64,000 bases of DNA from an uncultured Candidatus Saccharibacteria bacterium (GTDB lineage: Bacteria > Patescibacteriota > Minisyncoccia > Phycocordibacterales > UBA12088): positions 262,574-326,573 of the forward strand of contig CAZMLK010000001.1 in the NCBI GenBank assembly GCA_964567265.1. Direction: 5' to 3'. The notes below the pieces were generated by a model, which did not search any database, was not told the origin of the DNA, and was given only the letters and a program-made list of their open reading frames with translations. A program made the position numbers and the translations under genes. Every line of letters starts with the position of its first letter. The stretch's first letter is position 1. Of the stretch, positions 1 to 57,993 are shown in pieces.

Positions 1-110
1 GTTTAAATAATAAAAAGAATAATAATCCTTGTGAGAAGCTATCCGCTGTAGAAGAGTGCAGCAAGCATCGGAAATAACGTACTGAATCGAATTGGCTTCT
101 AGGCTTCTCT

Positions 111-599
111 ATGGCAGAAACTAAAAAAAAAGTACAACTCAAGGTCGGAGACGTATTCGAAATACGTTTATCTGATGGCACCTATGCGTATGGTCAGTAC
201 TACGTACAGGATAAAGGGGGTGATGTCGGAAGGTTCTTTTCTTATAGAGGAAAAGAAAAAATTTCACCTGAAGAGGTCGTAAAATATCCATTGTTATTCC
301 CTCCGGTACATGTGGGGATACGTGCATCACTTAATGATGGAGTATGGGTGGTTGTAGGGAATGTACCAATAACAGATTTTGAAGAGCCCATGTTCCGAAG
401 TGAATTTTCTCTTACCCCGGGAAAGTTTGGAAAGTGGTATATCACACAGGGTGATAAGGTTGAAGAGGTGGGGTATGTGCTCCCAGAAAAATATAAAAAA
501 CTCGAACGCAAAGGCGTTTGGCCAGGTGACTGGGTAGATGAGCGTATTGAGAATGGAGGAAAAATACCAGAAAGATTGAAATGGATGGGCCAGTCCTGA
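111..599 (+). CDS. hypothetical protein, possible immunity protein of a displaced polymorphic-toxin cassette
   Basis: 162-aa ORF with ATG at 111 in an AT-rich block upstream of an orphan Rhs toxin tip. No recognisable catalytic motif. The function is inferred from context only. Confidence 0.45.
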   Translation: MAETKKKVQLKVGDVFEIRLSDGTYAYGQYYVQDKGGDVGRFFSYRGKEKISPEEVVKYPLLFPPVHVGIRASLNDGVWVVVGNVPITDFEEPMFRSEFSLTPGKFGKWYITQGDKVEEVGYVLPEKYKKLERKGVWPGDWVDERIENGGKIPERLKWMGQS

Positions 600-626
600 T
601 TGAAAGCAATAAAATAATAGTACAAT

Positions 627-896
627 ATGGAAATGGAATTTTTCTTGTATTTTTCTACAGAATCTAAAGCAGAGCAGGCGAAAAAAGAAATTCTAAAAGT
701 ATATCCGCAAGCTGTGATTGAAATTAGAAATGCTGCAGAAGGGGATCAGATTCTTTGTCTTACACGATTCACCGTCAATGGAGGTGCTCCAAGTGCGCTG
801 GATGAGATTGATGCGCGCCTTGAAAATATTTCACATCAATTTGGCGGTGACTATGACGGTTACGGTACTTCCCTAGAGGCAAATATTTCGGAATAA
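627..896 (+). CDS. hypothetical small protein, possible orphan immunity gene
   Basis: 89-aa ORF ending in TAA at 894-896, directly abutting the start of GC-rich Rhs-derived sequence at 897. Confidence 0.35.
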   Translation: MEMEFFLYFSTESKAEQAKKEILKVYPQAVIEIRNAAEGDQILCLTRFTVNGGAPSALDEIDARLENISHQFGGDYDGYGTSLEANISE

Positions 897-1026
897 ACCC
901 ACCTCCCAGACCAGTCTCTTCAAGGATGCCGTCACCTCCACCCTCGGCGCAGCGAGCTACGTCATCAGCACGACCACCGGCACGTATACCGACACCTACA
1001 CCGGCGGAGCCTTCCGCGACTGGTGC

Positions 1027-2028
1027 ATGGGCGCAGCCGCCTTCAAGCCGGCAAGCACCACTTCAAGTGCCACAACAACCACCCGCTATCTCCACACCGA
1101 CCACCTCGGCGGAACCCACTTCGTCTCTGATGCCACTGGTGCAGTCATCGAAGCCATCGACTACTACCCGTATGGACAGAATAGGGTTGATACCAAAGTA
1201 GGTACCTACACCGGAGAGAAGCGGAAGTACATTGGAGAAGAGTTTGACAGTGCGACGAATCTCTCGTACCTTAACGCGAGGTATTACAACGGGGCACGGG
1301 GGAACTTCCTGAGTGAGGATCCAGTATTCCTCGGCACTGAACAAAATCTTGAGGATCCTCAGGCTCTCAATTCCTATGCGTATGCGAATGGGAATCCGAT
1401 AACCAAAAGTGACCCTACTGGAAAGAGCTGGCAAACCTTTGGGCAAGGTGCCGCAAGTCCCTTTGTTTACGCTTATAATCATCCCTTACAGACAGCTGGA
1501 GTATTTGCATTGACCACTGTGGCAGTACTGGCAGCGCCTGTTACGGTCGCCGTGATAGGTGCTGCTGCTGGAGGTTATGCAATAGGAACAGCTGGCTTCA
1601 GTGCCTACACCGCTCCAAATGCAGATGCAAGAGATTACTATATTGGGCAGGCTCTCACATTCACTGGACTAACTGCTGTTGGAATCAAGGGGAGTTCCTC
1701 AGTAAGTGCTACAAAGTCAACATCACGGCAAACATCAGGCAGCCCAGATTTTATCGTAGATGTAAACGGACAAGTATTTCCTGTTCCCAAGGGGGCAACA
1801 GGACCAGTACCCGTTATAAATAAAGCTGGTAAGGTTACTGGCAGTGCATTTACTGGTGGTTCAGGCGGTGAAAATGGACAAGTCACTACGATGAGAATTA
1901 TGGATCCCAACTCAAGTAATCCGACTGGATATATAAAATACACAAATGCCAATAAACAAGGGGTGAATCCGAATACGGGAAAGACTGGCACACCTGCTGA
2001 GACGCATTACCCAGCAAACACTAAGTAA
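1027..2028 (+). CDS. orphan Rhs/YD-repeat C-terminal fragment with a variable toxin tip (no N-terminal Rhs body in the window)
   Basis: The translation carries the Rhs core C-terminal signature: TGTYTDTYTGGAF, RYLHTDHLGGTHFVSDATGAVIEAIDYYPYGQ, ARYYNGARGNFLSEDP and DPTGK. A hydrophobic stretch and an unrelated C-terminal domain follow. The frame is open from 877 and sequence homologous to Rhs cores starts at about 897. The first in-frame ATG is at 1027. Confidence 0.75.
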   Translation: MGAAAFKPASTTSSATTTTRYLHTDHLGGTHFVSDATGAVIEAIDYYPYGQNRVDTKVGTYTGEKRKYIGEEFDSATNLSYLNARYYNGARGNFLSEDPVFLGTEQNLEDPQALNSYAYANGNPITKSDPTGKSWQTFGQGAASPFVYAYNHPLQTAGVFALTTVAVLAAPVTVAVIGAAAGGYAIGTAGFSAYTAPNADARDYYIGQALTFTGLTAVGIKGSSSVSATKSTSRQTSGSPDFIVDVNGQVFPVPKGATGPVPVINKAGKVTGSAFTGGSGGENGQVTTMRIMDPNSSNPTGYIKYTNANKQGVNPNTGKTGTPAETHYPANTK

Positions 2029-2033
2029 CACTC

Positions 2034-2378
2034 ATGAATACCTTTGAACATGTCCTTAAGGGGAAAAAAGTAGAAGTTATCAACGATAAGCCAGAAAAAT
2101 ACGAAGACGGAACTGTCGGCAATGATTGGGGTCTGGGTTTCGAGGGAGATTGGGGCTTGGCAATCTATGCCAACAGGGTAATAAAAAATGCCGAGTCGCT
2201 GAAAGATTTCGTTGGTGAAAAACTTACTTCAATCCAAGAAACAGAGAATGCAGTTGTTTTCGACTTCACTCATGAAAAAAAAATAATAATTTCTTTGGAA
2301 GAAAAAGATTGGAACGGCCCGGAGATAATGATGCTACAACGAGATAATCAGATATATGTATGGGGTGTCGGTGAATAG
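2034..2378 (+). CDS. putative cognate immunity protein for the Rhs C-terminal toxin
   Basis: 114-aa acidic ORF starting 6 nt after the toxin stop, which is the typical toxin-immunity arrangement. It is AT-rich like the toxin tip. Confidence 0.55.
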   Translation: MNTFEHVLKGKKVEVINDKPEKYEDGTVGNDWGLGFEGDWGLAIYANRVIKNAESLKDFVGEKLTSIQETENAVVFDFTHEKKIIISLEEKDWNGPEIMMLQRDNQIYVWGVGE

Positions 2379-2447
2379 CCGGTAGCTGTAGTCAGAGATA
2401 CCTCCAATACTCTTTAAAAGGCAGGGCTCAATATTCTCCATATAATT

Positions 2448-2639
2448 ATGAAAAAGATACCAATAACGCTTCTGCCGATCGTTCTAATTTTGATCGTTCT
2501 CCTCCTGTTCACTTTCTACGTGCCGCAGAGCGGGGATTTGATTTCTAGTAAAGGTGACTATTACTTGGGGCAAGCGCTCGGCCTCCTAACAGTGCTTTCA
2601 CTCCTCTTGGATTTTATGAGGTTCCAGAATCGCAAGTAG
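2448..2639 (+). CDS. small membrane protein with two predicted TM helices
   Basis: 63-aa ORF with two hydrophobic segments, located in the AT-rich cassette region. Confidence 0.35.
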   Translation: MKKIPITLLPIVLILIVLLLFTFYVPQSGDLISSKGDYYLGQALGLLTVLSLLLDFMRFQNRK

Positions 2640-2683
2640 AAACCAGCTGTAGTCTGTCGCCGGGGACACATCCATTTGAAACT

Positions 2684-2908
2684 ATGAAAGAAGAAATACT
2701 AATGCCGCTTGATGAAGAGGGAATCACCGTCTATCGACCCGTTTTGGCATTAAGGATTAATGATCACATTTATAAAATTCTTGAAGATACCTTAAATAAC
2801 CAAAATGATGAAGTTTGGGCCTTTAAGCCAGGTGAAGTCGTAGAGGTTGTTGAAAAAGAATTCGAGAATAAAAAATCATTGGTTGCCGTAAATTTGTACA
2901 AAGAATAA
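2684..2908 (+). CDS. hypothetical small protein
   Basis: 74-aa ORF in the cassette region with the same orientation as its neighbours. Confidence 0.35.
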   Translation: MKEEILMPLDEEGITVYRPVLALRINDHIYKILEDTLNNQNDEVWAFKPGEVVEVVEKEFENKKSLVAVNLYKE

Positions 2909-2953
2909 TGTATTTAACGCAAAGTCAGTCGTAATTAAACTGAATTCAATTCT

Positions 2954-3214
2954 ATGAACGACGGAAATAAACTTACACCGGATGAAGCATATAAGGCTAT
3001 GTTTTTCTTTCTAGATCGATGGTGGAAAGAAGGAGGACAGAAAGAAGATAACATTGCAAATATACTCAGTAGTATGTCTCTTTTAGCAGATGGTTCTTCT
3101 GCGGACGGCGCTATGATGCAAGACTGGAAAAATAGTGTCAAAAAGGTTCTCGAGTATCGAGGAAGGGTGGAAACGGGGGAAGAACCATGGATGTTGAATT
3201 TGACTAATAATTAG
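2954..3214 (+). CDS. hypothetical small protein, possible orphan immunity gene
   Basis: 86-aa ORF. GGGGACACRTCCA-like junction motifs flank this gene and the previous one. Confidence 0.4.
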   Translation: MNDGNKLTPDEAYKAMFFFLDRWWKEGGQKEDNIANILSSMSLLADGSSADGAMMQDWKNSVKKVLEYRGRVETGEEPWMLNLTNN

Positions 3215-3382
3215 GTCTTAGAATGGTATTGTCTTGTGGCGGCGTAGGGGAGTAGCGGGGGGACACGTCCAATATTCCTCCAAAATCTGTGGAGTACTAT
3301 TCTCCATCTGTCCGGTAGGGGTGGGACCAACACCACTACTTGCTTTTTTCTGGGCTTGCTGCATAATGTCGCTCATTAAATT

Positions 3383-4258
3383 ATGACCGATTTAAAGCAG
3401 CAAATCCACGAGAATACCCTCCGTGCCTACATATGGATGGCCGCATTAACCACCATCATAGGCGTGCTTGGCACGCTGATTTCCTATTCATTTGATTGGG
3501 GACTCACTGGTACTGGCTCGTTTCTCCTTGTAGCCGGTTTCATCAATTTTCTTGCCTATTTCTTTTCAGATAAGCTCGTCCTTCGTGCAACGGGAGCAAA
3601 GCCTGTTTCTCTGGAACAGGCTCCTGAGCTCTACGAGATTGTCGAGCGGTTGTCACAAAAGGCCGGCATTCCTGTACCTAAAATATATCTCATTGACGAG
3701 CGTGCATTGAATGCGTTTGCCACAGGCAGAGACCAGAAGCATAGCGCGGTGGCAGTCTCAAGAGGTCTTCTTGAGCACATGACTGCAGATGAAGTTGAAG
3801 GAGTCGTCGCCCACGAGCTTTCACACATTCGGAATTACGATATGCGATTTGCAGCCATTGTTTCCGTACTTGTTGGCTTTGCGAGCATCGTAGCTGATCT
3901 GTACTGGTCATCTCGCATGGTCAGTGCAGCCCAGGAAAAAGATCGATCCGGCATACTGGCGATCATCGGACTTGTTCTTGCCGTGGCAACACCACTTACG
4001 GCCATGTTTATCCAGTTGGCAATATCGCGAAAGCGCGAATTCATTGCCGATGCTGCAGGAGCGACATTGACTGAGAATCCTAAAGCGTTGGCCTCGGCAT
4101 TAAAGAAGATTGCGCTTGATGTACGTCTCCCGTCGGGGATCAGTCCTGCTACTGCACATATTTATTTTTCCACCCCGAATAAAGACTCATTCATCGAGCG
4201 GCTGTTCGCAACCCATCCTCCAATCGAAGAACGAATCAATATCCTTGAGTCCAAATAA
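3383..4258 (+). CDS. htpX: HtpX-like M48 zinc metalloprotease
   Basis: Two N-terminal TM helices, a HELSH zinc motif (HEXXH) and a C-terminal ATHPPIEERI region typical of HtpX. A CATAAT-like -10 lies upstream near 3364. Confidence 0.9.
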   Translation: MTDLKQQIHENTLRAYIWMAALTTIIGVLGTLISYSFDWGLTGTGSFLLVAGFINFLAYFFSDKLVLRATGAKPVSLEQAPELYEIVERLSQKAGIPVPKIYLIDERALNAFATGRDQKHSAVAVSRGLLEHMTADEVEGVVAHELSHIRNYDMRFAAIVSVLVGFASIVADLYWSSRMVSAAQEKDRSGILAIIGLVLAVATPLTAMFIQLAISRKREFIADAAGATLTENPKALASALKKIALDVRLPSGISPATAHIYFSTPNKDSFIERLFATHPPIEERINILESK

Positions 4259-4284
4259 TCTAGATTAAAAAATTCAATACGAGC

Positions 4285-4905
4285 ATGTCAGATTCAACTA
4301 CAGCAGAAGCGCCAATAAAGATCGGAAATCACACGCAGGATATCGTGAGGTGTGCTAATTGCAACATGGAAGGAGTTGTCGGCGATTTCTTCACCTATCA
4401 GACGAAGGACGGCTCAGATACCTACCTCTGTTCAGACTGCCGCGTCAAAGCAAATGAGACGCTTGAGGCAGAGAAGAATCAAATCAATATGGTGTATGCG
4501 GCCGGGCTCGGTATCGTTGCAGCGATCGCGGGTGGAATCGCGTGGTACTATGTCACCCTGCTCACGAACATGGAATTCGGATATGCAGCGCTCGGACTCG
4601 GATATCTGGTCGGATATGCAGTATTTATCGGTGCTGGGAAGCGACGCGGACAAAAGTTGCAGATCCTGAGTGTGGTATTGACTTTGCTTAGTATTTTCTG
4701 GGCAGAATACTTCATTTTCAGTCACGGACTCTTCGAATACATGAGCGCGAATCCCTCTCAATTTGATTGGTGGGATGGTGCTAAAATTTGGCTAGATCCG
4801 TGGTCTTCTATCTTCCTCGAAACATTTATCTCTCCAATCAGCGCACTTATTTACGCAATCGGCCTCTACGTAGCGTACACTGTGTGCAAGCCTCAAAAAC
4901 TCTAA
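4285..4905 (+). CDS. zinc-ribbon membrane protein (N-terminal CxxC...CxxC followed by about four TM helices)
   Basis: CANCN...CSDC motif followed by hydrophobic helices. Followed by a strong terminator. Confidence 0.6.
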   Translation: MSDSTTAEAPIKIGNHTQDIVRCANCNMEGVVGDFFTYQTKDGSDTYLCSDCRVKANETLEAEKNQINMVYAAGLGIVAAIAGGIAWYYVTLLTNMEFGYAALGLGYLVGYAVFIGAGKRRGQKLQILSVVLTLLSIFWAEYFIFSHGLFEYMSANPSQFDWWDGAKIWLDPWSSIFLETFISPISALIYAIGLYVAYTVCKPQKL

Positions 4906-4914
4906 AATAGACCC

Positions 4915-4943
4915 AAAAAAACCTCCTATAGGAGGTTTTTTTG
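4915..4943 (+). terminator. rho-independent terminator (ACCTCCTATAGGAGGT stem plus T-run)
   Basis: Perfect palindrome flanked by an A-run and a T-run, so it can act in both directions. Confidence 0.7.
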
Positions 4944-5053
4944 TTGGGGTGTGGTGGAAATGGCGCGTACAGAATCCAAAGTAATCCACAGTTCGGGAAT
5001 ATGTTACACTGTACTTTCTACAGTCATTTATACGCATCACGGAAGCCAACAGC

Positions 5054-35679: not shown

Positions 35680-36034
35680 CGAAGGAGCGTATTTCGGAGC
35701 AGAAAAATTTTCCTCATGAAACTGTATTTTGTAAAGTAGGTCGCAAACGGGCCCGAAACTGCGGGCCCGTTTAGGAGGCAATTTGACATGCGCTTTGAAA
35801 AATTCTGCAGGGTAAAATTGGGGCTGTTATCCACACCCAGACCCAACTTTTAGAGATACAATACTCCTACAACCATCCCGATTCTGGAAACGGTTCGTGG
35901 CGAAGACCGTACGTTCTTGGATAAATAACAGACATGAGAGGCGTTCGATGCACGAAAAGGCATTGAGGCCGGGAGTCCCGTCGCCGATATTTCAAAATTC
36001 GCTTATCAACGGTGATTAACTGGTGGGAGACAAT

Positions 36035-38953
36035 ATGAGCATCACAATCACAAAGCGTGACGGCACGCGAGAACTATTCGACGCCGATAAGATCAACCAG
36101 TCTATCGCGCGCGCATGCGAAGGCCTTCCTGAGAAGGAGTCTTTGGTGATGCAGATCGCCTCAGAGACGCGCCTCACGATGTACGACGGCATGACGACGG
36201 AAGAGATGGATCGCGCCACCATCGACGCAGCTGTCCAGAACATCAAGGACGATCCTGCCTTCGACAAGGCCGCGACACGCCTTCTCCTCAAGACCATCTA
36301 CCGTCGCGCGCTCGGCGACTTCACCACGCACGAGGAGCTGAAGCGCCTCTACCGCGAGCAGTTCGTCGCCTATATCGAGAAGGGAGTCGCGCTCTCGCTC
36401 CTCGACAGCCGCCTCCAGAGCACCTACGACCTCGTCCGCATGGCCGAAGCCATCAATCCGGAACGCGACGAGCTCTTTACGTACACGGGCCTCGATACGC
36501 TCCTCAAGCGCTATTCGATCCGCGAGCACGGCGAGAAGCCGCTCGAGCCGCCGCAGTACGTCTTCATGCGCATCGCGATGGGCCTCGCGCTCAATGAATC
36601 CAATCCGAACGATTGGGCAATCCGCTTCTATGAGAAGATGTCGAAGCACGAGTACATCGCGGGCGGCTCGACCAACATCGGCGCCGGAACCACGAAGCCG
36701 AAGCTCTCGAACTGCTTCCTCATCGACATGCAGGACGACATGGAGAACATCTCCAAGTGCGTCGCCGACACGCTCTTGATTTCCAAGGCGACGGGCGGCA
36801 TCGGCATGACGGTCACCCGCATGCGCGCGAACGGCTCGCCGCTAGGCGCGTCGAACTCGGTCTCATCCGGTCCCGTCCCATTCCTCCACATCATCGACTC
36901 CTGCATCCATGCGATCGTGCGCGGCGGCAAGAAGAAGGGCGCCCTCTGCTTCTACATGGAGCCATGGCACCTCGATATCGATGACTTTTTGAACTTGAAG
37001 CAGAACGCGGGCGATGACTATCGCCGTACCCGGACCGCGAATACCGCCGTCTACATTCCCGACGAATTCATGCGCCGCGTCCGCGATGACGAGATGTGGT
37101 ATCTCTTCGACCCGAAGGAGACCTATGATCTCGTGGATCTCTATGGCGCCGCATTCGCGAAGCGCTACGCGACCTACGCGCAGATGGCAGAAGCGGGGCA
37201 TCTCCGCCTCTGGAAGAAGCTCCCGGCTGCTGAATTGTGGCGGAAGATCGTCGTATCCCTCCAGACCACCTCGCATCCGTGGATCACTTGGAAGGACACT
37301 ATCAACCTCCGCGCCCTCAACAACAATACCGGCACCATCAACGGATCGAACCTCTGCACCGAGATCACGCTCCCGCATGACCGCAACAACACGGCCGTCT
37401 GCAACCTCATCTCGCTCAACCTCGCGCGCCACATCCGGAACGGCGCCATCGAATGGCAGAAGCTCGAGCAAAGCGTGCGCCTCGGCATCCGCCAGCTCGA
37501 CAACCTGATCGACATCAACGTGCTCCCGATCCCGGAGGCCGTGAAGTCGGACAGCGAGAACCGCGCGATCGGCATGGGGGTCATGGGCGTCGCCGATGCG
37601 CTCGAGCAGCTCGCGCTTCCGTACGACTCCGAAGGTGCATACGATTTCGTCGACCGCATCATGGAGTTCGTGAGCTATATGGCGATCGATGAATCGACCC
37701 GCCTTGCCGAAGAGCGCGGCAACTACGCGAATTTCGAAGGTTCAGGCTGGTCGAAGGGAATGGTCCCGGTTGATACCGTCGGCCTCCTCGAGCTCGATCG
37801 CGGCCTTCCGGTCACCGTCAATAAGGCGAGCGCGCACCGCGGACTCGACTGGAACGTCCTCCGCGAGAAGGTGAAGAAGGGCATGCGGAACGCGACTCTG
37901 CTCGCGATCGCGCCGAACGCGAACATCGGCCTCGTCGCCGGAACGTCTCCGGGCATCGATCCGCGCTTCACGCAGATGTTCAGCCGCAGCAAGTACTCGG
38001 GGAAGTACATGGAAGTGAACCCGAACCTCGTGCACGCGCTCCGCGCGCGCGGCCTCTGGGAGAAGGTGCGTGACCGTATCCTCGAGGAGCATGGCGAGCT
38101 CACCAACATCGATGAGATCCCCGATGACATCAAGGCCGTCTACAAGACCTCGTTCATCCTTCCTGCGAACGCATTCATCGAGGTCGCTGCGCGCGCGCAG
38201 AAGTGGGTGGACCAGGCGATCAGCCGCAACATGTACCTCGCGACCCGCGACACCGACGAGACGATGAACATCTACATGAATGCATGGGAGAAGGGCTTGA
38301 AGACCACCTACTACCTCCACATGAAGCCGCGCCACACCGCCGAGCAGAGCACGGTCAAGGTCAACAAGTCGGTCCTTGTCGGCAAGAAGGGCTTCGGCGT
38401 CCTTACGGAGAACGAGAATGGAGATGTGCTCTCGCCGGTCGGATTCGCGCAGGTCTCTCTCGAGATGCCGGTCGCAGCGGGACGCGGTGAGATGAACGAA
38501 TCAACTGCGCCTGAACCGGAGCCCATGGCACCACCCGTCCCGACGATCCCGCAGCCGACTCCGCTTCCGGAAATCCCGATGCAGCCGAAAGGCCCAGCAC
38601 CGGTGACGCCGAACGCAGCAGGATTCGGCGCAGTCACACGCACGCCGGAGCGTCCGCTCATGAGCGTCGAGGATGCGATGTCGTTCCCGCTCGAACAGAA
38701 GAACGTGGTGACGGATGCAAAGAAAGGATTCGGCGCAGTCGCGACCGCGCCAATCGCTCCGATTGCCGCAGTCCCGCATTCATTCAATCCGCCACAGGCT
38801 TCGTATACGCCGCCGCAGCCCCGCGCAGAGACGCAGTCATTCAGCCAGCCGCAGGTCCGGCCCCAGACTCAGGTACGACAGCCGATCCAGGATCGCAATA
38901 CCGATGACCTGGTTGATCCGAATGAACTGAATGTTTGCGACTCTTGTCAGTAG
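36035..38953 (+). CDS. nrdA: ribonucleoside-diphosphate reductase alpha subunit, class Ia, with a long Pro/Gln-rich C-terminal extension
   Basis: N-terminal ATP-cone, catalytic NLCTEI, and a C-terminal CDSCQ redox tail. GGGAG SD upstream of ATG 36035. Confidence 0.95.
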   Translation: MSITITKRDGTRELFDADKINQSIARACEGLPEKESLVMQIASETRLTMYDGMTTEEMDRATIDAAVQNIKDDPAFDKAATRLLLKTIYRRALGDFTTHEELKRLYREQFVAYIEKGVALSLLDSRLQSTYDLVRMAEAINPERDELFTYTGLDTLLKRYSIREHGEKPLEPPQYVFMRIAMGLALNESNPNDWAIRFYEKMSKHEYIAGGSTNIGAGTTKPKLSNCFLIDMQDDMENISKCVADTLLISKATGGIGMTVTRMRANGSPLGASNSVSSGPVPFLHIIDSCIHAIVRGGKKKGALCFYMEPWHLDIDDFLNLKQNAGDDYRRTRTANTAVYIPDEFMRRVRDDEMWYLFDPKETYDLVDLYGAAFAKRYATYAQMAEAGHLRLWKKLPAAELWRKIVVSLQTTSHPWITWKDTINLRALNNNTGTINGSNLCTEITLPHDRNNTAVCNLISLNLARHIRNGAIEWQKLEQSVRLGIRQLDNLIDINVLPIPEAVKSDSENRAIGMGVMGVADALEQLALPYDSEGAYDFVDRIMEFVSYMAIDESTRLAEERGNYANFEGSGWSKGMVPVDTVGLLELDRGLPVTVNKASAHRGLDWNVLREKVKKGMRNATLLAIAPNANIGLVAGTSPGIDPRFTQMFSRSKYSGKYMEVNPNLVHALRARGLWEKVRDRILEEHGELTNIDEIPDDIKAVYKTSFILPANAFIEVAARAQKWVDQAISRNMYLATRDTDETMNIYMNAWEKGLKTTYYLHMKPRHTAEQSTVKVNKSVLVGKKGFGVLTENENGDVLSPVGFAQVSLEMPVAAGRGEMNESTAPEPEPMAPPVPTIPQPTPLPEIPMQPKGPAPVTPNAAGFGAVTRTPERPLMSVEDAMSFPLEQKNVVTDAKKGFGAVATAPIAPIAAVPHSFNPPQASYTPPQPRAETQSFSQPQVRPQTQVRQPIQDRNTDDLVDPNELNVCDSCQ

Positions 38954-38992: not shown

Positions 38993-40012
38993 ATGATCCT
39001 CGGAAAACCACGTGAGAAAGACATGTCGCTCCGGCCCATCCAGTACCAGTGGGCGTACGACCTGTACAACCAGGCGGTCGCGAACACTTGGTTCCCGCAC
39101 GAGATCGCGCTCGGCGAGGATCTCCGCGACTGGGAGACCATGACCGAGGATGAGCGCTACGCAGTGACCTTCCTCCTCAGCTTCTTCAATCCGGCTGAGC
39201 TCATTGTGAACCGCTCGCTCGCGCTCGGCCTCTATCCATATCTCCGCGCGCCAGAGACGCACATCTACCTCGCGAAGCAGATGTGGGAGGAAGCGAATCA
39301 TGCGGTCGCCTTCGAATACGTGCTTGAAACATTTCCCGTCGACCGCGAGAAGGTGTTCAACCAGCACGCAGAAATCCCGTCGATGATGGCGAAGGAAGCA
39401 TTCCTCCACAAATATTTGGAGCGGATGACGGATCTCAATCTCGACATCACCAGCGTCGCAGGCAAGCAGGACTTCGTACGCAACCTCGTCGCCTACAACA
39501 TCGTGATGGAAGGCATCTGGTTCTATTCCGGCTTCATGGTCGCGCTCTCGTTCCGCCAGCGGAACCAGCTCCGCAACTTCGGCTCGATGGTTGACTGGGT
39601 GCTCCGCGATGAATCCCTGCACCTCAAGTTCGGCATCAACATCGTCCTCACCGTCCTTGAAGAGAATCCGGAGATCGTGACGCAGGAATTCGCGAACGAG
39701 ATCCAGCAGATCATCATCGAGGGCGTGCAGATCGAATCGAACTACAACCGCGATCTCTTCCCGCGCGGCATCCTCGGACTCAACGCAGACTACGTGAACC
39801 AGTACGTGCAGTATGTCGCCGACCGCCGCCTCGAGGAGCTCGGCTTCCAGCCGCACTTCAAGGTCACGAACCCGGCGAAGTGGATGTCGACCGCGACGGA
39901 CGTCCTCGAGCTCGTGAACTTCTTCGAGTCGCAAAACACCAGCTACGAAGTCGATGTCCGCGCCCACAAGGCAAGCGACGCGGCCGAAAAGGAGCCGGTA
40001 TCAGCGGAGTAG
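38993..40012 (+). CDS. nrdB: ribonucleoside-diphosphate reductase beta subunit, class Ia
   Basis: Ferritin-like di-iron ligands (EANHAVAFEY ... EGIWFYSGF) and the radical-site region. Confidence 0.95.
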   Translation: MILGKPREKDMSLRPIQYQWAYDLYNQAVANTWFPHEIALGEDLRDWETMTEDERYAVTFLLSFFNPAELIVNRSLALGLYPYLRAPETHIYLAKQMWEEANHAVAFEYVLETFPVDREKVFNQHAEIPSMMAKEAFLHKYLERMTDLNLDITSVAGKQDFVRNLVAYNIVMEGIWFYSGFMVALSFRQRNQLRNFGSMVDWVLRDESLHLKFGINIVLTVLEENPEIVTQEFANEIQQIIIEGVQIESNYNRDLFPRGILGLNADYVNQYVQYVADRRLEELGFQPHFKVTNPAKWMSTATDVLELVNFFESQNTSYEVDVRAHKASDAAEKEPVSAE

Positions 40013-40035: not shown

Positions 40036-40070
40036 GAAAAACCCCCGAAATATGTCTTTCGGGGGCTTGT
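40036..40070. terminator. bidirectional terminator
   Basis: CCCCCGAAA tatgtc TTTCGGGGG with an A-run on the left and T-rich sequence on the right. Confidence 0.65.
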
Positions 40071-40073
40071 CGC

Positions 40074-40385
40074 TTATTGACCGCCGTTGGGGCCGGTCGC
40101 TGGTTTTTTTGGAAAATGAACTGATGGGGGGTACGGGTACCCAGCCTCGCGCGGGTCTACTCGTTCAATTGAGCCGTGACTTCTATCCGTGGACGGATTG
40201 ATGTCCGCGATGTACAGGAAGCGAGGTGCTCCCTCTAGTTCGACCAGGCGCTCACTAGAAGTGAAGATGTAGCCGGCCGGCGCTCTCCGCTTCGAAACAA
40301 TACGACCTCTTCGTTCGCGGATGCCGCCATTCGTTATGTAGACAAGATCTCCGATGCAGAAGCGACGCGTGCTCGCAGTTTTCAT
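40074..40385 (-). CDS. hypothetical protein
   Basis: 103-aa ORF followed on the minus strand by the terminator. Poor SD spacing lowers confidence. Confidence 0.3.
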   Translation of the reverse strand: MKTASTRRFCIGDLVYITNGGIRERRGRIVSKRRAPAGYIFTSSERLVELEGAPRFLYIADINPSTDRSHGSIERVDPREAGYPYPPSVHFPKKPATGPNGGQ

Positions 40386-40456
40386 TCCTTAGATCCTCAC
40401 CTGGTTCCAAAGAAAACCGTACGTGAGATTCCACCGAGTGTCAAAGGAAATGAGAA

Positions 40457-40479
40457 GGGCCCGCGCGAAGCGCGGGCCC
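40457..40479 (-). terminator. GC hairpin terminator of small-membrane-protein paralog A (repeat copy 1)
   Basis: GGGCCCGCGC gaa GCGCGGGCCC lies 21 nt after the stop of paralog A. The same hairpin recurs at 40844. Confidence 0.55.
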
Positions 40480-40499
40480 GGTTACGCTGATGCAATGCG

Positions 40500-40760
40500 T
40501 CAGTAGTGTCGATGTGTGCGAGCGTCATGGTTCCGATGAGCAAGACAGTCGATGGCCCATGCAAGTGCGCCGATGAGCGCGGTAACAATGAGGCAGAAGA
40601 TGATGAGCGGGCTGTATGCTGACAGCCACCAGGCGAAGTCTCTCTCGGGTATTCCAAGAAGAAACGCAGTGACAGGTTCCGCTGTCATGGTCTCCGCTAG
40701 ATGAAGGCCGAAGATAATGACGAATCCGACGAAGATGAGCCGCCAAAGTGCTCCGATCAT
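40500..40760 (-). CDS. small two-TM membrane protein, paralog A of a tandem pair
   Basis: 87 aa starting at MIGALWRLIF. The GIPERDF motif is shared with paralog B. SD AGGGGG upstream. Confidence 0.55.
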   Translation of the reverse strand: MIGALWRLIFVGFVIIFGLHLAETMTAEPVTAFLLGIPERDFAWWLSAYSPLIIFCLIVTALIGALAWAIDCLAHRNHDARTHRHY

Positions 40761-40793
40761 TCCGTGCCCCCTTAGTTGGTACGAACTTCGACC

Positions 40794-40822
40794 ATATAAC
40801 CATATATACGAGTATATGTCAA
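40794..40822 (-). promoter_or_regulatory. sigma70-type promoter of paralog A (TTGACA-17-TTATAT on the minus strand)
   Basis: Same architecture and spacing as the promoter at 41192-41220. Confidence 0.55.
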
Positions 40823-40843
40823 TGGTTTGGCATGTAGGAAAAT

Positions 40844-40864
40844 GGCCCGCGCGAAGCGCGGGCC
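40844..40864 (-). terminator. GC hairpin terminator of paralog B (repeat copy 2)
   Basis: GGCCCGCGC gaa GCGCGGGCC lies 16 nt after the stop of paralog B, followed by TTTTCC on the minus strand. Confidence 0.55.
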
Positions 40865-40879
40865 GGAGGCTGAATGAGC

Positions 40880-41158
40880 TCATTTGTTCCGAGACCTGTC
40901 GATATTGCGGACGCGGTCCATGAGTTGCTCATACTGGTTAATACGGTCGAAACCCCACGCGACGATGCCGATGATTCCGACCAGTGCGAACACGAGGAAA
41001 CTGAGCGAGCCGTATTCATACTGCCAATCGTAGAAGTCCCTCTCAGAGATTCTCAGTATGAATGGGGTCAAAGGCACTGTAGTCATAATCTCCGCCAAGT
41101 ACAGACCGACGATGGGCGTGAGTACAATCAGAATGAAACGCCAGATGAATCCGAGCAT
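40880..41158 (-). CDS. small two-TM membrane protein, paralog B of a tandem pair
   Basis: 92 aa with two TM helices, a RISERDF motif and a charged C-terminal tail. SD AAGGA is 8 nt upstream. Confidence 0.55.
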   Translation of the reverse strand: MLGFIWRFILIVLTPIVGLYLAEIMTTVPLTPFILRISERDFYDWQYEYGSLSFLVFALVGIIGIVAWGFDRINQYEQLMDRVRNIDRSRNK

Positions 41159-41191
41159 TTCTCTATCCTTCCGGTTGCTATAACTTTGGCA

Positions 41192-41220
41192 ATATAACCA
41201 TAGATAAAACGTACTGTCAA
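41192..41220 (-). promoter_or_regulatory. sigma70-type promoter of paralog B (TTGACA-17-TTATAT on the minus strand)
   Basis: -35 at 41215-41220 and -10 at 41192-41197 read on the minus strand. Confidence 0.55.
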
Positions 41221-41293
41221 TTTTTTTGTGGGTACCGCATGGCGCTACCCATTCGGAATCTAAAATGCGCAGCTTTGTGCTAAGGTGTCATGG

Positions 41294-42466
41294 ATGACCG
41301 AATTCTCATACGAAATACTGAAGCGAAAAGGTAATGCCCGTGCAGGCATCATTCATACCCCGCATGGCGATATCGAGACGCCGGCTTTCGTCGCGGTCGG
41401 CACCAAGGGCACGGTGAAGGCGCTCACGCCCGAGATGCTGGAGTCCCTCGGCTCCCAGATCATCCTTTCGAATACCTACCATCTCTACCTCCAGCCGGGC
41501 GATGAGACCGTCCGTGACGCGGGCGGTCTCCATAAATTCGCCAACTGGGACAAGCCGTTCATGACGGATTCTGGTGGCTTCCAGGTATTCTCGCTCGGCG
41601 CTGCCTACGGGAAGCAGCTCACCAAGATCGCGAAGGAGGCGATTCCGGATGAATCGAGCACGCCTGCAATCTACGACGAGGATATCGCGACACAGCACGG
41701 CCAGCTCGCGATTATCGATGAAGAGGGTGTCACCTTTACCTCGCACATCAATGGCAGCCTCCATCGCTTCACGCCGGAGCGCTCGATCGAGATCCAGCAT
41801 AATCTCGGAGCAGACATCATCGTCGCATTCGACGAATGCACGTCGGCAACGGCTTCGAAGGACTATCAGCATGAAGCGATGGATCGCACGCATCGGTGGG
41901 CAGAACGCTCCTGGAAAGCGCACAAGCAGAATCTGGATGCGTCCCGAAAGCAGGCGCTCTTTGGTGTCGTCCAAGGCGGACGATTCGAAGATCTCCGGCG
42001 TGAAAGTGCAAAGGCAATTGCCGACATGCCATTTGATGGATTCTGCATCGGCGGTTCATATGTGAAGGAAGACCTCGACACCGCCGTCGGCTGGGTATGC
42101 GAGGAATTGCCTGAAGACCGCCCACGTCATCTCCTTGGTATCGGTGAGCCGTCGGACCTCGTCTCAGGAATCGCGAAAGGTGTCGACATGTTCGACTGCG
42201 TCGCGCCGACGCGCATAGGCAGGAATGGCTGCGTGTACTCCAAAGCAGGGAAGTTAAATCTTTTGAATGCAAAATTTGTCCGCGACTTCGGTCCGCTGGA
42301 CGAAGGGTGCAGCTGCTACGCCTGCCGGAACTACTCCCGCGCGTACATCGCGCATCTTTTCCGCGCAGACGAGATGCTCGCAGCCGTCCTCGCCAGCATC
42401 CACAACATCCATTTCATCGTGAACCTCGTCAAAGCAGAGCGCGAGAAGATATTGATGATGAGATAG
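41294..42466 (+). CDS. tgt: queuine tRNA-ribosyltransferase (tRNA-guanine transglycosylase)
   Basis: ARAGIIHTPHGDIETPAFVAVGT, DCVAPTR and CSCYAC zinc-site motifs. ATG at 41294 with SD AAGGTG. Confidence 0.95.
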   Translation: MTEFSYEILKRKGNARAGIIHTPHGDIETPAFVAVGTKGTVKALTPEMLESLGSQIILSNTYHLYLQPGDETVRDAGGLHKFANWDKPFMTDSGGFQVFSLGAAYGKQLTKIAKEAIPDESSTPAIYDEDIATQHGQLAIIDEEGVTFTSHINGSLHRFTPERSIEIQHNLGADIIVAFDECTSATASKDYQHEAMDRTHRWAERSWKAHKQNLDASRKQALFGVVQGGRFEDLRRESAKAIADMPFDGFCIGGSYVKEDLDTAVGWVCEELPEDRPRHLLGIGEPSDLVSGIAKGVDMFDCVAPTRIGRNGCVYSKAGKLNLLNAKFVRDFGPLDEGCSCYACRNYSRAYIAHLFRADEMLAAVLASIHNIHFIVNLVKAEREKILMMR

Positions 42467-42530
42467 CTTTTCGGAGGAGCTTCTCGAAGCATACCCTCTC
42501 ACTATCCACAGTTTTCTGTTCTAATGCCAT

Positions 42531-42558
42531 TTGCAACATTCGCGCACAGCGGTAGAAT
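42531..42558 (+). promoter_or_regulatory. sigma70-like promoter TTGCAA-16-TAGAAT
   Basis: Lies upstream of a structured non-coding segment. Confidence 0.45.
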
Positions 42559-42564
42559 GATATG

Positions 42565-42736
42565 GCTGAAGCGTGGATTGGTTTTATGAGCAATCATTAT
42601 TAGAAGTAGGGGCTCTTATCTTGATTGCGAAGTATCAGGGGTAAAACCTTAAATGCTTCAGCAAAACATTGCGGTATCGGTCTTCTAACGATGACTTGTG
42701 CCTTGATGCTTCGCAATCAGTACGAGAGCCTTTTTA
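42565..42736 (+). ncRNA. candidate structured small RNA (promoter plus long imperfect hairpin plus T-run), family unknown
   Basis: 5' arm 42609-42640 pairs with 3' arm 42701-42730, including GATTGCGAAGyATCA on both arms. An outer GGCTCT/AGAGCC pair closes the stem, followed by TTTTT. No convincing ORF. Confidence 0.3.
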
Positions 42737-43111
42737 ATTCCTCCTCAAAGTTCCCATGAGGGGGCGTTAGAAATAGTAGGGCACCCCCCCCTGTACCCTC
42801 GAATGTTGCACGTTACGCGACTGCATCATGGGAAAATATTTTCTCAGGTGTTTCCCGGGTGAGAACGGCACGGTTTGCTGTGAACATCCAAATGGCAGCT
42901 GGATTTGCTTTCCAGCTGGAAATGCAAAAGACCCGTCAAACGACGAGTCTCTCGCATAAGTCTGGCGACTTCACAACGCTCCCTACGGGGAGCTTTGTGT
43001 TTTTATTTTACCCTGCTTCGCATGAAGCAGAGATGTGCACTTTACCGTATTTGGGGATAGCTACGCAAATCAATTTTGTCTACCTGTCTTTATGGAATAG
43101 GTACCAAAATG

Positions 43112-43140: not shown

Positions 43141-43175
43141 CCCTATAGCACAATTTCGTGCGCGGAGGTTATTCG

Positions 43176-43736
43176 ATGCCAAGAGGAAAAAAAGCCACTG
43201 GGGCGGATGCGAACAAGCAAGGCACTGCAGTAATAGGCAACGGGGCGCCGAGGCCAAGACGGCCGAGAGTTAATCCAGAAACCGCAGTATTGCCGCTTGT
43301 AAATGTTCCTGCACGCGACACGGTCGATGAGATCCCGGCCGATTCCGTGGTTGCGGAGGAAAATCCAGATTTCACAGCGGGCGAACGAGACGGTCTCGTC
43401 GAAAGGGTGGAGCTGCTCTCGAGTGAACTGGTAGGGCGCGACAGCACTATCGAAACCCTGCGTGCGGAAATTGCCACACTCAAGATGGAGAATGCATCTT
43501 TTCGAGAAGAAGGTACCACCGGCGGAATCCAGTTCGCAGTCCTGAAGACCGCTGCTCTGATGCTCCTATTTCCGAACGGCATCTCAAAAAAAAGAGCGGG
43601 TGAGCTGAGACAGGCGTACATTCATGCTCCCAAAAGTATGGCGAGCAAGGAGGTCTTAGCAGCAATCATCTGGCTCATCAGAGAGGCATACGAACAGGAG
43701 TTGCTGGAGGAATTTCCAGAAGCCGGACACGTGTGA
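43176..43736 (+). CDS. hypothetical protein with a basic N-terminus and a coiled-coil
   Basis: GGAGG lies 7 nt upstream of ATG 43176. Low GC. No recognisable domain. Confidence 0.55.
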   Translation: MPRGKKATGADANKQGTAVIGNGAPRPRRPRVNPETAVLPLVNVPARDTVDEIPADSVVAEENPDFTAGERDGLVERVELLSSELVGRDSTIETLRAEIATLKMENASFREEGTTGGIQFAVLKTAALMLLFPNGISKKRAGELRQAYIHAPKSMASKEVLAAIIWLIREAYEQELLEEFPEAGHV

Positions 43737-43752
43737 CATCCTGAATCACTGC

Positions 43753-43792
43753 GGCCGACACGAACCATATGGTTCGTGTCGGCCTTTTTTAT
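43753..43792 (+). terminator. rho-independent terminator
   Basis: GGCCGACACGAACC atat GGTTCGTGTCGGCC followed by TTTTTT. Confidence 0.75.
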
Positions 43793-43799
43793 TTGACAG

Positions 43800-44231
43800 A
43801 TGCAGTCATACCGCGTATGCAAAGGAAGGAATCGTTTCACTTGTCGTGGATGGACTGGAATCGATATGCCGAAGAGAAGGAATGATCCTGATGAGGATCT
43901 CGCCCGTGAAGTACGGATGTCAGGACTCCCTGATGAGATCATTGAGATCCTCGTCTCAATCCTCAAGTTGACGAGAGGATTTACAAGGCCGGCACGGCGA
44001 AAGATCGAAAAGCCATGGGACACGCATACTGTGAAAGCGTTCATCGCATTCCGCAAACGCCTTTCCGCGAAATATCCAAATCTCACCCTCCTTCCGTTCT
44101 ACGTGAAGCGGCCGAAGAAAAGCGTATGGCATTGTGCCTGGCTTACCAAGCGGACCGGGCCGGGAAGAAAGCATCCGTACGCTGCAAGCAGTTCATTTGC
44201 TTCGAATGAACGTTCACAGGCGGCGAGTTAG
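43800..44231 (+). CDS. hypothetical protein (basic)
   Basis: 143-aa ORF. The start is uncertain, with an alternative ATG at 43866. Confidence 0.4.
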   Translation: MQSYRVCKGRNRFTCRGWTGIDMPKRRNDPDEDLAREVRMSGLPDEIIEILVSILKLTRGFTRPARRKIEKPWDTHTVKAFIAFRKRLSAKYPNLTLLPFYVKRPKKSVWHCAWLTKRTGPGRKHPYAASSSFASNERSQAAS

Positions 44232-56751: not shown

Positions 56752-57993
56752 ATGGAGAAAGCACATCTGGTAAAACGGAAGCTCCCAGACACGCCCGGCG
56801 TGTATTTTTTCCTGGGTCCGCGTAAGAAGATCCTGTACATCGGCAAGGCGACATCGCTCCGCTCGCGCGTGCGGAGCTATTTCGACGCGGATATCGCGGC
56901 CAAGCGGAGCCCGCTCATCGCCCAGATGGTTGCGGAGGCAAAGACCATCGACTTCCGGAAGACCGACTCTGTCCTCGAAGCGCTGATTCTTGAAGCAAAT
57001 CTGATCACGCATTGGAAACCCGCCTACAACACAGACGGCAAGGACGACAAGAGCTTTAATTATGTAGTGATCACGAACGAGGAGATCCCGCGCGTTCTTA
57101 TGGTCCGCGCGCATGAGCTCTATCAGACGTATGAGGAGAGCGAGCTCAAGCGAGTGTTCGGGCCGTTCCCGCATGCAGCGCAGCTCAAGGAAGCCCTCCA
57201 TCTCGTGCGGAAGATCTTCCCGTTCTTCGACACCAAGAAGCCAGTCCTCGCGAACATGACGCCGCACGAGGCAGGGAAGATCCGCTTCAACCAGCAGATC
57301 GGCGTGTACCCGAGCATGCTGTCTTCTGATGAATATGCGCGTTCAATCCGCCACATCATTCTTCTGTTCGAAGGGAAGAAGCCGCTCCTCGTTCGAGAGC
57401 TGAAGAAGGAAATGAAACTCGCTGCCTCGGAGCAGCGCTTCGAAGATGCAGAACGCGCGAAACGCCAGATGTTCGCGCTCACGCATCTTCGTGATATCGC
57501 CCTCATCAAGGAAGACATGGCGGCCGGCCCTGGGGATTTCAGGATCGAGGCATATGACATCGCGCATCTGGGCGGCAAGGCGATGACGGGCGTCATGGTC
57601 GTGGTCGAGGACGGAGTCGCAAAGAAATCAGACTACCGCAAATTTAAGGTTCGCACAGTGGCAGCCTCGAATGACACGAAGGCGCTCAAGGAAGTGATTG
57701 AGCGGCGCCTCGGACACTCAGAATGGCCGCTTCCGAACCTCATAGTCGTTGATGGGGGCCAGGCGCAGATCAACGCTGCAGAATCAGTGCTCGCCACCTT
57801 CGGCTACATGATCCCGGTCACGAGCGTGGTCAAGGATGACAAGCACCGCGCCCGCGACATCATGGGCGACCAGCTCCATCGAAAGCTCCGGGAAAAGGAG
57901 ATCCTTCTCGCCAACGCAGAGGCGCATCGCTTCGCGATCGCCTATCACCGCCTCACAGGACGCCGAGCGCTCATCAGGCCCTCGAACGGATAA
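56752..57993 (+). CDS. uvrC: excinuclease ABC subunit C, short form lacking the C-terminal HhH domain
   Basis: GIY-YIG motifs (PGVYFFLGPRKKILYIGKATSLRSRVRSY), a UVR-like helix (RFEDAERAKRQ) and the UvrC RNase H-like endonuclease domain (AYDIAHLGG...LIVVDGGQAQ). Confidence 0.85.
   Translation: MEKAHLVKRKLPDTPGVYFFLGPRKKILYIGKATSLRSRVRSYFDADIAAKRSPLIAQMVAEAKTIDFRKTDSVLEALILEANLITHWKPAYNTDGKDDKSFNYVVITNEEIPRVLMVRAHELYQTYEESELKRVFGPFPHAAQLKEALHLVRKIFPFFDTKKPVLANMTPHEAGKIRFNQQIGVYPSMLSSDEYARSIRHIILLFEGKKPLLVRELKKEMKLAASEQRFEDAERAKRQMFALTHLRDIALIKEDMAAGPGDFRIEAYDIAHLGGKAMTGVMVVVEDGVAKKSDYRKFKVRTVAASNDTKALKEVIERRLGHSEWPLPNLIVVDGGQAQINAAESVLATFGYMIPVTSVVKDDKHRARDIMGDQLHRKLREKEILLANAEAHRFAIAYHRLTGRRALIRPSNG

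Follow-up and report, generated by a model that had tools for sequence, protein, structure and literature searches.

Tandem genes for small, predicted two-helix membrane proteins in a fast-changing slot between nrdB and tgt of an uncultured Candidatus Saccharibacteria bacterium

The stretch of DNA analysed here (hereafter the window; 64 kb of contig CAZMLK010000001.1 from an uncultured Candidatus Saccharibacteria bacterium) carries, between nrdB and tgt, two tandem copies of a small gene, termed paralogues A and B, whose products are predicted to cross the membrane twice. A further member of the family, P0004, was found in a sister species. The slot between nrdB and tgt turns over much faster than its surroundings, with both copy number and content differing between the two sister species, a property that the sequence-only reading of this DNA had not described. 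The explanation favoured here, which is given a rough probability of 0.45, is that A and B would encode membrane hairpins without lytic activity, expressed constitutively and acting by way of a conserved acidic loop on the outer side.

All coordinates are positions in the window, which is 100% identical to a Logan contig from SRR16481186; an NCBI contig of 621,860 bp is a further recorded source of the proteins. The slot lies between convergent nrdB (38993–40012, + strand) and divergent tgt (41285–42466, + strand) and consists of three monocistronic small genes, A, B and P0003, all on the minus strand. The third of these, P0003, lies in the same block and had been passed over in the sequence-only reading. 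A and B belong to two collinear units (B, 40837–41220; A, 40457–40822). The features of the slot, with the Shine-Dalgarno sequence abbreviated SD, transmembrane helix TM, open reading frame ORF and coding sequence CDS, are as follows.

41191–41220, minus strand: predicted promoter of unit B (exact pattern match; sigma-70 score)
41159–41190, minus strand: leader of unit B, with SD GGAAGGA at 41166–41172 (sequence reading)
40880–41158, minus strand: CDS of paralogue B (P0001), 92 amino acids (aa) (ORF; predicted two-TM hairpin, loop ISERDFYDW, mixed-charge tail)
40837–40864, minus strand: terminator-like hairpin of unit B (21-mer match; folding)
40794–40822, minus strand: predicted promoter of unit A (exact pattern match)
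40761–40793, minus strand: leader of unit A, with SD AAGGGGG at 40767–40773 (sequence reading)
40500–40760, minus strand: CDS of paralogue A (P0002), 86 aa (ORF; predicted two-TM hairpin, loop IPERDFAWW, His/Arg-rich tail)
40457–40479, minus strand: terminator-like hairpin of unit A (21-mer match; folding)
40416–40444, minus strand: predicted P0003 promoter, TTGACA-17-TACGGT (sequence reading; sister-species conservation)
40074–40385, minus strand: P0003, a 103-aa conserved orphan with a KOW-like N-terminal motif (ORF; 85% aa identity to the sister species)
40039–40068, minus strand: terminator-like hairpin between P0003 and convergent nrdB (terminator scan)

In a DNA alignment of the two units, homology was collinear through the -35 element, the -10 element, the CDS and the hairpin, with divergence concentrated in the promoter spacer, the leader and the segment from stop codon to hairpin. 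This bears out the earlier proposal of an old tandem duplication of a whole promoter-ORF-terminator unit with retention of both copies, both ORFs being intact in this genome. Each gene, on the sequence, forms a self-contained monocistronic unit, with a near-consensus sigma-70-type predicted promoter, a short leader, an ORF and a predicted GC hairpin terminator. The architecture that had been described for the two units was recovered in its promoters, leaders, SD, two TM segments and hairpins, except that A encodes 86 aa and not 87. The gene caller takes ATG 40760, after the AAGGGGG SD, as the start of A. The upstream extension of this frame (40761–40883), for which the earlier reading proposed a check of whether it is untranslated, runs through the terminator and the promoter, and its ATG at 40883 overlaps the TGA of B. 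In the sister species nothing corresponds to it, the matching frame being open for only 13 codons upstream and lacking similarity, and the extension was therefore judged not to be translated.

The A–B block has a GC content of 0.519; the mean for the window is 0.559 ± 0.043, and values this low or lower are found in 15.5% of windows of the same size. The description of the block as low in GC was not upheld, as it lies only one standard deviation below the mean, and a low-GC, horizontally acquired island was rejected on the same figure. An integron cassette with an attC site was also rejected, based on the form of the hairpin (a perfect 9–10 bp GC stem with a 3-nt loop and a T-rich tail) and the presence of a promoter at each ORF.

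The pattern TTGACA-N14-TGGTTATAT has exactly two occurrences in the 64 kb, at 41192–41220 and 40794–40822 on the minus strand, where 0.04 would be expected by chance. In unit B, the -35 TTGACA is at 41215–41220, TGG at 41198–41200 and TGGTTATAT at 41192–41200, and the -10 may be read in two registers, either as TTATAT (41192–41197, 17-nt spacer) or as TATATT (41191–41196, 18-nt spacer). In unit A, the same elements are found at 40817–40822, 40800–40802 and 40794–40802, with the -10 read as TTATAT (40794–40799, 17-nt spacer) or TATATG (18-nt spacer). The 18-nt-spacer register, with -10 TATATT or TATATG, is the better fit to the sigma-70 consensus; in this register the B promoter matches at 11/12 positions, the best score in the 64 kb, and five sites reach 10/12. 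TRTGn is the extended -10 form, and the TATGgTTATAT block with the 17-nt spacer fits it. The ATTGACA and TATGGTTATAT blocks of the B promoter are common to A and to the sister-species gene, with the spacer and leader diverged, and the 15-nt block TATATATGGTTATAT and ATTGACA are identical in the promoters of A and P0004. This conservation between paralogues and between species, when neighbouring non-coding bases are not conserved, argues that the predicted promoters are functional. In both units the leader is ~27 nt, with ~33 nt from the -10 to the ATG and an SD present, and the leader RNA folds no better than shuffled sequences (z +0.5 for B; z +0.2 for A), leaving the SD free. Elements of this kind would be expected to drive strong constitutive transcription of A and B.

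Within the 64 kb, the 21-mer GGCCCGCGCttcGCGCGGGCC is found at two places only, 40458–40478 and 40844–40864 (0 expected), in line with the near-identical hairpin previously noted after each stop codon. The hairpin of unit B has the form GGCCCGCGC-ttc-GCGCGGGCC at 40844–40864 and is followed by an ATTTTCC tail, and that of unit A is a 10-bp GC stem at 40457–40479 with a TTC loop. The hairpins start 15 nt (B) and 21 nt (A) after the stop codon, which keeps the approximate range of the 16–21 nt given earlier and corrects its lower end. With folding energies of -22.4 kcal/mol (z -3.4) for B and -27.5 kcal/mol (z -4.7) for A, and with both structures flagged as terminator-like by the scan, transcription would probably terminate at the two hairpins. 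The A and B hairpins, 386 bp apart, agree at 21/21 positions, although the CDS beside them have reached saturation at synonymous sites. In the sister species, the hairpins at the corresponding positions (GGGCCGC-tcac-GCGGCCC and CGGCCCGCAC-gaga-GTGCAGGCCG) differ from those of the window and from each other, and the changes include a compensatory pair. Since selection on structure only would permit hairpins to drift, their identity within one genome suggests either short-tract gene conversion between the palindromes or a sequence-specific role. Membership of a repetitive extragenic palindromic (REP) family was rejected, as the hairpin has only two copies in the 64 kb even with 3 mismatches and the sister-species hairpins also differ in sequence.

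The products of A and B share 38% identity over 78 residues (E 6e-19), within the 35–40% estimated earlier, and the three family members, A, B and P0004, are 36–47% identical with lengths of 86, 92 and 90 aa, respectively. Each protein has two hydrophobic 19-residue windows (Kyte-Doolittle 2.1–2.8), at approximately residues 1–22 and 52–70, and an AlphaFold2 (AF2) model from the three-sequence alignment represents A as a helical hairpin (helices 2–25, 30–35 and 39–85; mean predicted local distance difference test [pLDDT] 74). By sequence reading, the loop is acidic, the C-terminal tail is basic or mixed, and a single Arg lies near the N-terminus; under the positive-inside rule, this charge distribution predicts an N-in/C-in topology, with TM1 at approximately residues 2–22 and TM2 at approximately residues 52–70. 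The predicted extracytoplasmic loop would then be acidic, ~28 residues long and contain the invariant E23, P29, T31, E39-R40-D41 and W45, while TM2 would carry a small-residue face (G64..A67-W68..D71) and lead into a basic cytoplasmic tail of 15–22 residues. No AXA-type signal-peptidase site was read after TM1. The motif noted earlier between the helices retains its ERD core, though its F is not invariant once P0004 is included, and across the three members it becomes (P/S)ERD(F/V)xxW. Residues invariant in all three proteins are M1, R7, I9, I16, G18, L19, A22, E23, P29, T31, E39, R40, D41, W45, L52, G64, A67, W68, D71 and R84, with the constrained parts being the outer end of TM1, the loop motif, and the small-residue/Trp/Asp face at the inner end of TM2.

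Proportions of nonsynonymous (pN) and synonymous (pS) differences were obtained as Nei-Gojobori counts for A/B (pN 0.37, pS 0.72), A/P0004 (pN 0.35, pS 0.65) and B/P0004 (pN 0.42, pS 0.74), and in all pairs the differences by codon position ranked 3 > 1 > 2. Values of pN well under pS, together with this codon-position pattern, indicate that A and B are real coding genes, and, as judged by these substitution patterns, both ORFs are genuine coding sequences under purifying selection. That the ORFs are instead non-functional, either as decaying relics or as bystanders of promoter and hairpin elements that make short non-coding RNAs, is very improbable: conservation is higher in the regulatory blocks and hairpins than in the CDS and the family is absent from all databases searched, but pN is well below pS with the same codon-position ranking in 3/3 comparisons, all three ORFs are undisrupted and similar in length, each has an SD, a pair of hydrophobic helices and the invariant charged and aromatic residues of the loop, and Rfam returned nothing.

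P0004 is present on three identical Logan contigs (SRR31757426, SRR31757429 and SRR31757430), and the sister species is syntenic with the window over at least 18 kb. Identities between the sister species and the window are 98% for NrdA, 99% for NrdB, 98% for TGT, 98% for UvrB and 85% for P0003 (all aa), and flanking-gene synonymous divergence (dS) ranges from 0.3 to 1.07. In the sister species, tgt is followed by a 52-aa single-TM ORF with a hairpin, then by P0004, the P0003 orthologue and nrdB. P0004 has a promoter of the form TTGACA-N14-TGGTTATAT and its own hairpin, and is 46% identical to A and 36% to B. A sensitive blastn search found no nucleotide homology across 40424–41256 of the window, save for two patches, one of 34 nt at the C-terminal end of A and one of 78 nt in which the promoter, leader and start of B match the promoter, leader and start of P0004. 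Homology is clear at the junction between the upstream terminator tail and the A/P0004 promoter, where TTTTCCT, AAC.ATTGACA and TATATATGGTTATAT are common to both, and the -35 and TACG.T -10 of the P0003 promoter are conserved in the sister species.

The synonymous divergence of A and P0004 (pS 0.65 ± 0.06) lies above that of their neighbours (0.32 for nrdB; 0.38 for P0003), so the two are not simple orthologues. They may derive from an ancestral multi-copy array that was differentially sorted, or else be alleles exchanged by recombination. B is roughly equidistant from A and P0004, which places the duplication before the split of the two species. A mosaic origin of P0004, with the 5′ end of B and the 3′ end of A, is weakly hinted at by the two nucleotide patches and the per-segment identities.

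The position of paralogue B in the sister species is occupied by the 52-aa single-TM ORF (L003 9715–9873, + strand), which has its own hairpin and no family match in PHROGs or PADLOC. It was considered as a truncated B comprising TM2 and the tail, with AW and DRVR shared, and this was rejected, as the local alignment was not significant (shuffle p 0.03–0.35). Just downstream of tgt, a segment of ~640 bp (42463–43105, GC 0.45) is absent from the sister species, where homology jumps from 42462 to 43106; it holds a promoter-like site (42530–42558, + strand), a Cys-rich 43-aa ORF (42828–42959, + strand) and a terminator-like hairpin (42978–42993, + strand), and Rfam returned nothing for it. Beyond it, two orphan ORFs lacking Pfam hits (43158–44231, + strand) are 72% and 64% identical to their sister-species counterparts, with dN/dS of 0.42 and 0.24, among neighbours that are 92–98% identical, and constitute a second patch of rapid evolution, across tgt from the slot.

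Searches for relatives support the view that the family is uncharacterised. No hits beyond self were obtained for A or B among 5.8 billion 90%-identity clusters, and a profile of A and B run with HMMER against all 1.84 billion 50%-identity representatives recovered only A, B and P0004 (90 aa, E 1e-12). There was no significant family match for A or B in Pfam, NCBIfam, PHROGs or PADLOC, and no significant match in the Protein Data Bank (PDB) by sequence or by Foldseek against PDB and BFVD (none at E < 1 in BFVD). Pattern scans followed by tblastn identified no true relatives in GTDB species representatives, JGI metagenomes or IMG/VR, tblastn against GenBank phages gave nothing credible, and Rfam gave nothing. 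One candidate, GTDB locus L002 from a Patescibacteria metagenome-assembled genome, was rejected as a chance ISERDFYDW nonapeptide inside a 446-aa protein. A profile match to the cytochrome b helix C-cd-D region (E 0.02) was also rejected, being at the level expected from hydrophobic composition. With P0003 as an anchor for further genomes, only the two known lineages were recovered, and a JGI metagenome scan anchored on it returned nothing. On these searches, the family appears lineage-restricted and new at the level of sequence; as a kind, the lineage-specific, fast-evolving small membrane protein is already familiar.

Under the favoured explanation, the A and B proteins would be made constitutively and abundantly, would be non-lytic, and would bind another component of the envelope by means of the conserved acidic/aromatic outer loop and the small-residue face of TM2. 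They would in this respect resemble small membrane-protein modulators or protective proteins of the immunity/exclusion type, not holins or toxins. Two versions of this explanation are considered, in which the proteins would act as a modulator of a membrane complex or as a protective immunity/exclusion-type protein; deep allelic divergence and the difference in copy number favour the protective version, for which there is no adjacent toxin, bacteriocin or phage gene. MgrB, SafA, AcrZ and MgtS represent the functional class of small membrane-protein modulators, mostly <50–65 aa with one TM, which are usually induced by the regulated system and act by binding a larger membrane protein. A and B are likewise short, membrane-embedded, lineage-restricted and fast-evolving proteins from stand-alone genes, but differ from the MgrB type in their size (86–92 aa), two TMs, constitutive-looking promoters and tandem duplication, and share no sequence similarity with it.

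Several observations weigh against the proposal of a constitutive, non-lytic hairpin protein. The promoters and terminators are consensus matches only, and the selection analysis is of three short, saturated sequences from two lineages. The neighbours (nrdAB, tgt and P0003) are separately transcribed and functionally uninformative, and point to no partner. A near-consensus promoter on a small hydrophobic protein, tandem repetition and narrow distribution would also fit pore-forming toxins, for which a conserved Trp followed by charged residues after a TM helix has served as a search criterion (PMC2887945). The 21/21 identity of the hairpins is left unexplained by the favoured model.

In a sharper version of the favoured explanation, A and B would protect either as orphan immunity proteins, directed against a membrane-acting toxin or bacteriocin, or by phage exclusion; the outer loop would block the attacker, and diversifying or balancing selection would act on the family. 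Stated this specifically it is unlikely, though rated above the alternatives that follow; in its favour are a divergence that is very deep relative to the flanks (pS above neighbours), a slot whose copy number and content differ between sister species, small multi-TM proteins with a conserved outer loop, and constitutive-looking expression as predicted from the promoters. Elsewhere, the window also holds probable polymorphic-toxin machinery in the form of an ORF with an RHS core domain (1027–2028). Set against these, there is no adjacent bacteriocin, toxin or export gene, with neither a bacteriocin structural gene nor a dedicated exporter within ~10 kb on either side, and PADLOC and PHROGs gave no hit; the nonsynonymous to synonymous ratio of the family (0.2–0.3) reflects purifying and not positive selection, and the comparison covers two lineages only. 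An extension of this idea, in which the slot would be a hypervariable cassette site holding ancient, highly diverged alleles of a new family of strongly expressed envelope proteins, kept by balancing selection as a novel type of exclusion/immunity determinant against phage or inter-strain toxins and with the conserved promoter and terminator modules as recombination boundaries, is speculative and rather doubtful; such boundaries of cassette exchange would also explain the identical hairpins.

A less probable reading makes A and B accessory subunits with a housekeeping role in a conserved membrane complex (respiratory, transport or division), duplicated by chance. Predicted strong constitutive expression and purifying selection would be compatible with such a role, as would the weak profile hit to cytochrome b mentioned above, were it not at the level of hydrophobic composition. 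Subunits usually track the conservation of their partners, whereas here the identity is 46% where neighbours are at 97–99%, the copy number differs, and no relatives occur outside the lineage. CrgA (PF06781) is an actinobacterial two-TM cell-division protein of ~90 aa, conserved and single-copy, with a ~30-residue cytoplasmic N-terminal segment. A and B are similar to it in size and in the predicted two-TM N-in/C-in hairpin, but lack the ~30-residue N-terminal segment, have no Pfam match to CrgA at E ≤ 1 and are hypervariable.

The holin-like or small toxin-like character proposed in the sequence-only reading fared worse. In this alternative, A and B would be pore-forming proteins, similar to an oversized type I toxin or to a pinholin, that depolarise the membrane when translated, and it is considered improbable. 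Class II holins and pinholins (such as S21 of phage 21) have two TMs, an N-in/C-in topology and a charged cytoplasmic C-tail, and the predicted topology, basic C-tail and similar size range of A and B are like theirs; this two-TM N-in/C-in form with a charged tail is common to many unrelated proteins. The small-residue face of TM2 could, on its sequence, support oligomerisation. The other defining features that were examined do not fit. No holin family model was matched in Pfam at E ≤ 1, PHROGs returned only hits annotated as ‘membrane protein’ or of unknown function (E ≥ 0.0038), and the scans of IMG/VR and GenBank phages turned up no member of the family. The genes around A and B (nrdA, nrdB, P0003, tgt and orphan ORFs) include no endolysin, spanin or phage gene, hence no lysis cassette or prophage, and a dual-start motif is lacking, the N-termini (MIGALWR, MLGFIWR and MLRFIAL) having a single Met each. 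For a true holin, having a near-consensus promoter of the constitutive type would be lethal, and the combination of such a predicted promoter with a free SD was judged incompatible with a lethal protein.

The tandemly duplicated type I toxin-antitoxin loci ldr/rdl, ibs/sib and zorO/orzO (PMC2887945, PMC3919570) are, like A and B, tandem monocistronic genes for small hydrophobic proteins in one intergenic region, with similarity that extends beyond the CDS, a narrow range, and a Trp and charged cluster after the TM helix, and in A and B a conserved Trp closes TM2 ahead of a charged tail, a feature that was among the search criteria of Fozo et al. (PMC2887945). However, A, B and P0004 are larger (86, 92 and 90 aa) and have two TMs, compared to the single TM helix of type I toxins and to a size limit of <70 aa in one study (PMC2887945) and a typical size of <60 aa in another (PMC11264685). 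The leaders are short (~33 nt from the -10 to the ATG), show no structure and leave the SD free, in place of the long structured 5′ untranslated region of type I loci. On the opposite strand, a standard scan detected no promoter-like sites and a relaxed scan found only weak ones (8/12 matches at non-equivalent positions in AT-rich codons), and neither hairpin has a T-tail on the + strand. With the predicted terminator and promoter, the 119–126 nt between the genes are fully taken up and would leave no room for a divergent small RNA (sRNA) gene; no antisense or divergent sRNA gene was detectable in these scans or with Rfam.

Other features of the window are recorded here as observations in their own right. 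P0003 adjoins the small membrane-protein family in both genomes; its N-terminal motif, IGDLVYITNGG..RGRIV, is KOW-like with weak matches to S4e/L24 (E 0.1–0.9), its AF2 model is unusable (pLDDT 40), and its recorded source is Logan only and not NCBI. Upstream of nrdB, at 36023–38953 (+ strand), the window encodes a class Ia NrdA with an ATP-cone and a Pro/Gln-rich low-complexity segment of ~220 aa, which contains repeated KKGFG(V/A) motifs and precedes the terminal CDSCQ; this NrdA is 98% identical in the sister species. The first part of the window (1–5000) is low in GC (0.40–0.50) and includes the RHS repeat-associated core domain ORF (1027–2028, + strand), which is probably a polymorphic-toxin tip, the toxin itself being either truncated at the edge of the window or encoded by a separate gene; a gene for an HtpX-like protease follows. 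A UvrC-like ORF of 413 aa (56752–57993, + strand) matches the UvrC model in two separate stretches and may be shortened or internally deleted. No rRNA is present in the window, and many of its housekeeping proteins fall well short of the NCBIfam equivalog cut-offs, which fits a lineage that branches deeply and has been poorly sampled.

If A and B are expressed as predicted, the slot between nrdB and tgt would represent a small-protein locus evolving at a far higher rate than the housekeeping genes around it; within it, a whole promoter-ORF-terminator module has been duplicated as a unit, and its sequence family is seen in only two lineages among ~15 billion proteins. The compact, consensus-like promoter and terminator parts could serve as expression modules for this poorly sampled lineage. 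Loci of this type tend to host lineage-specific functions of the envelope, such as protection, recognition or regulation.

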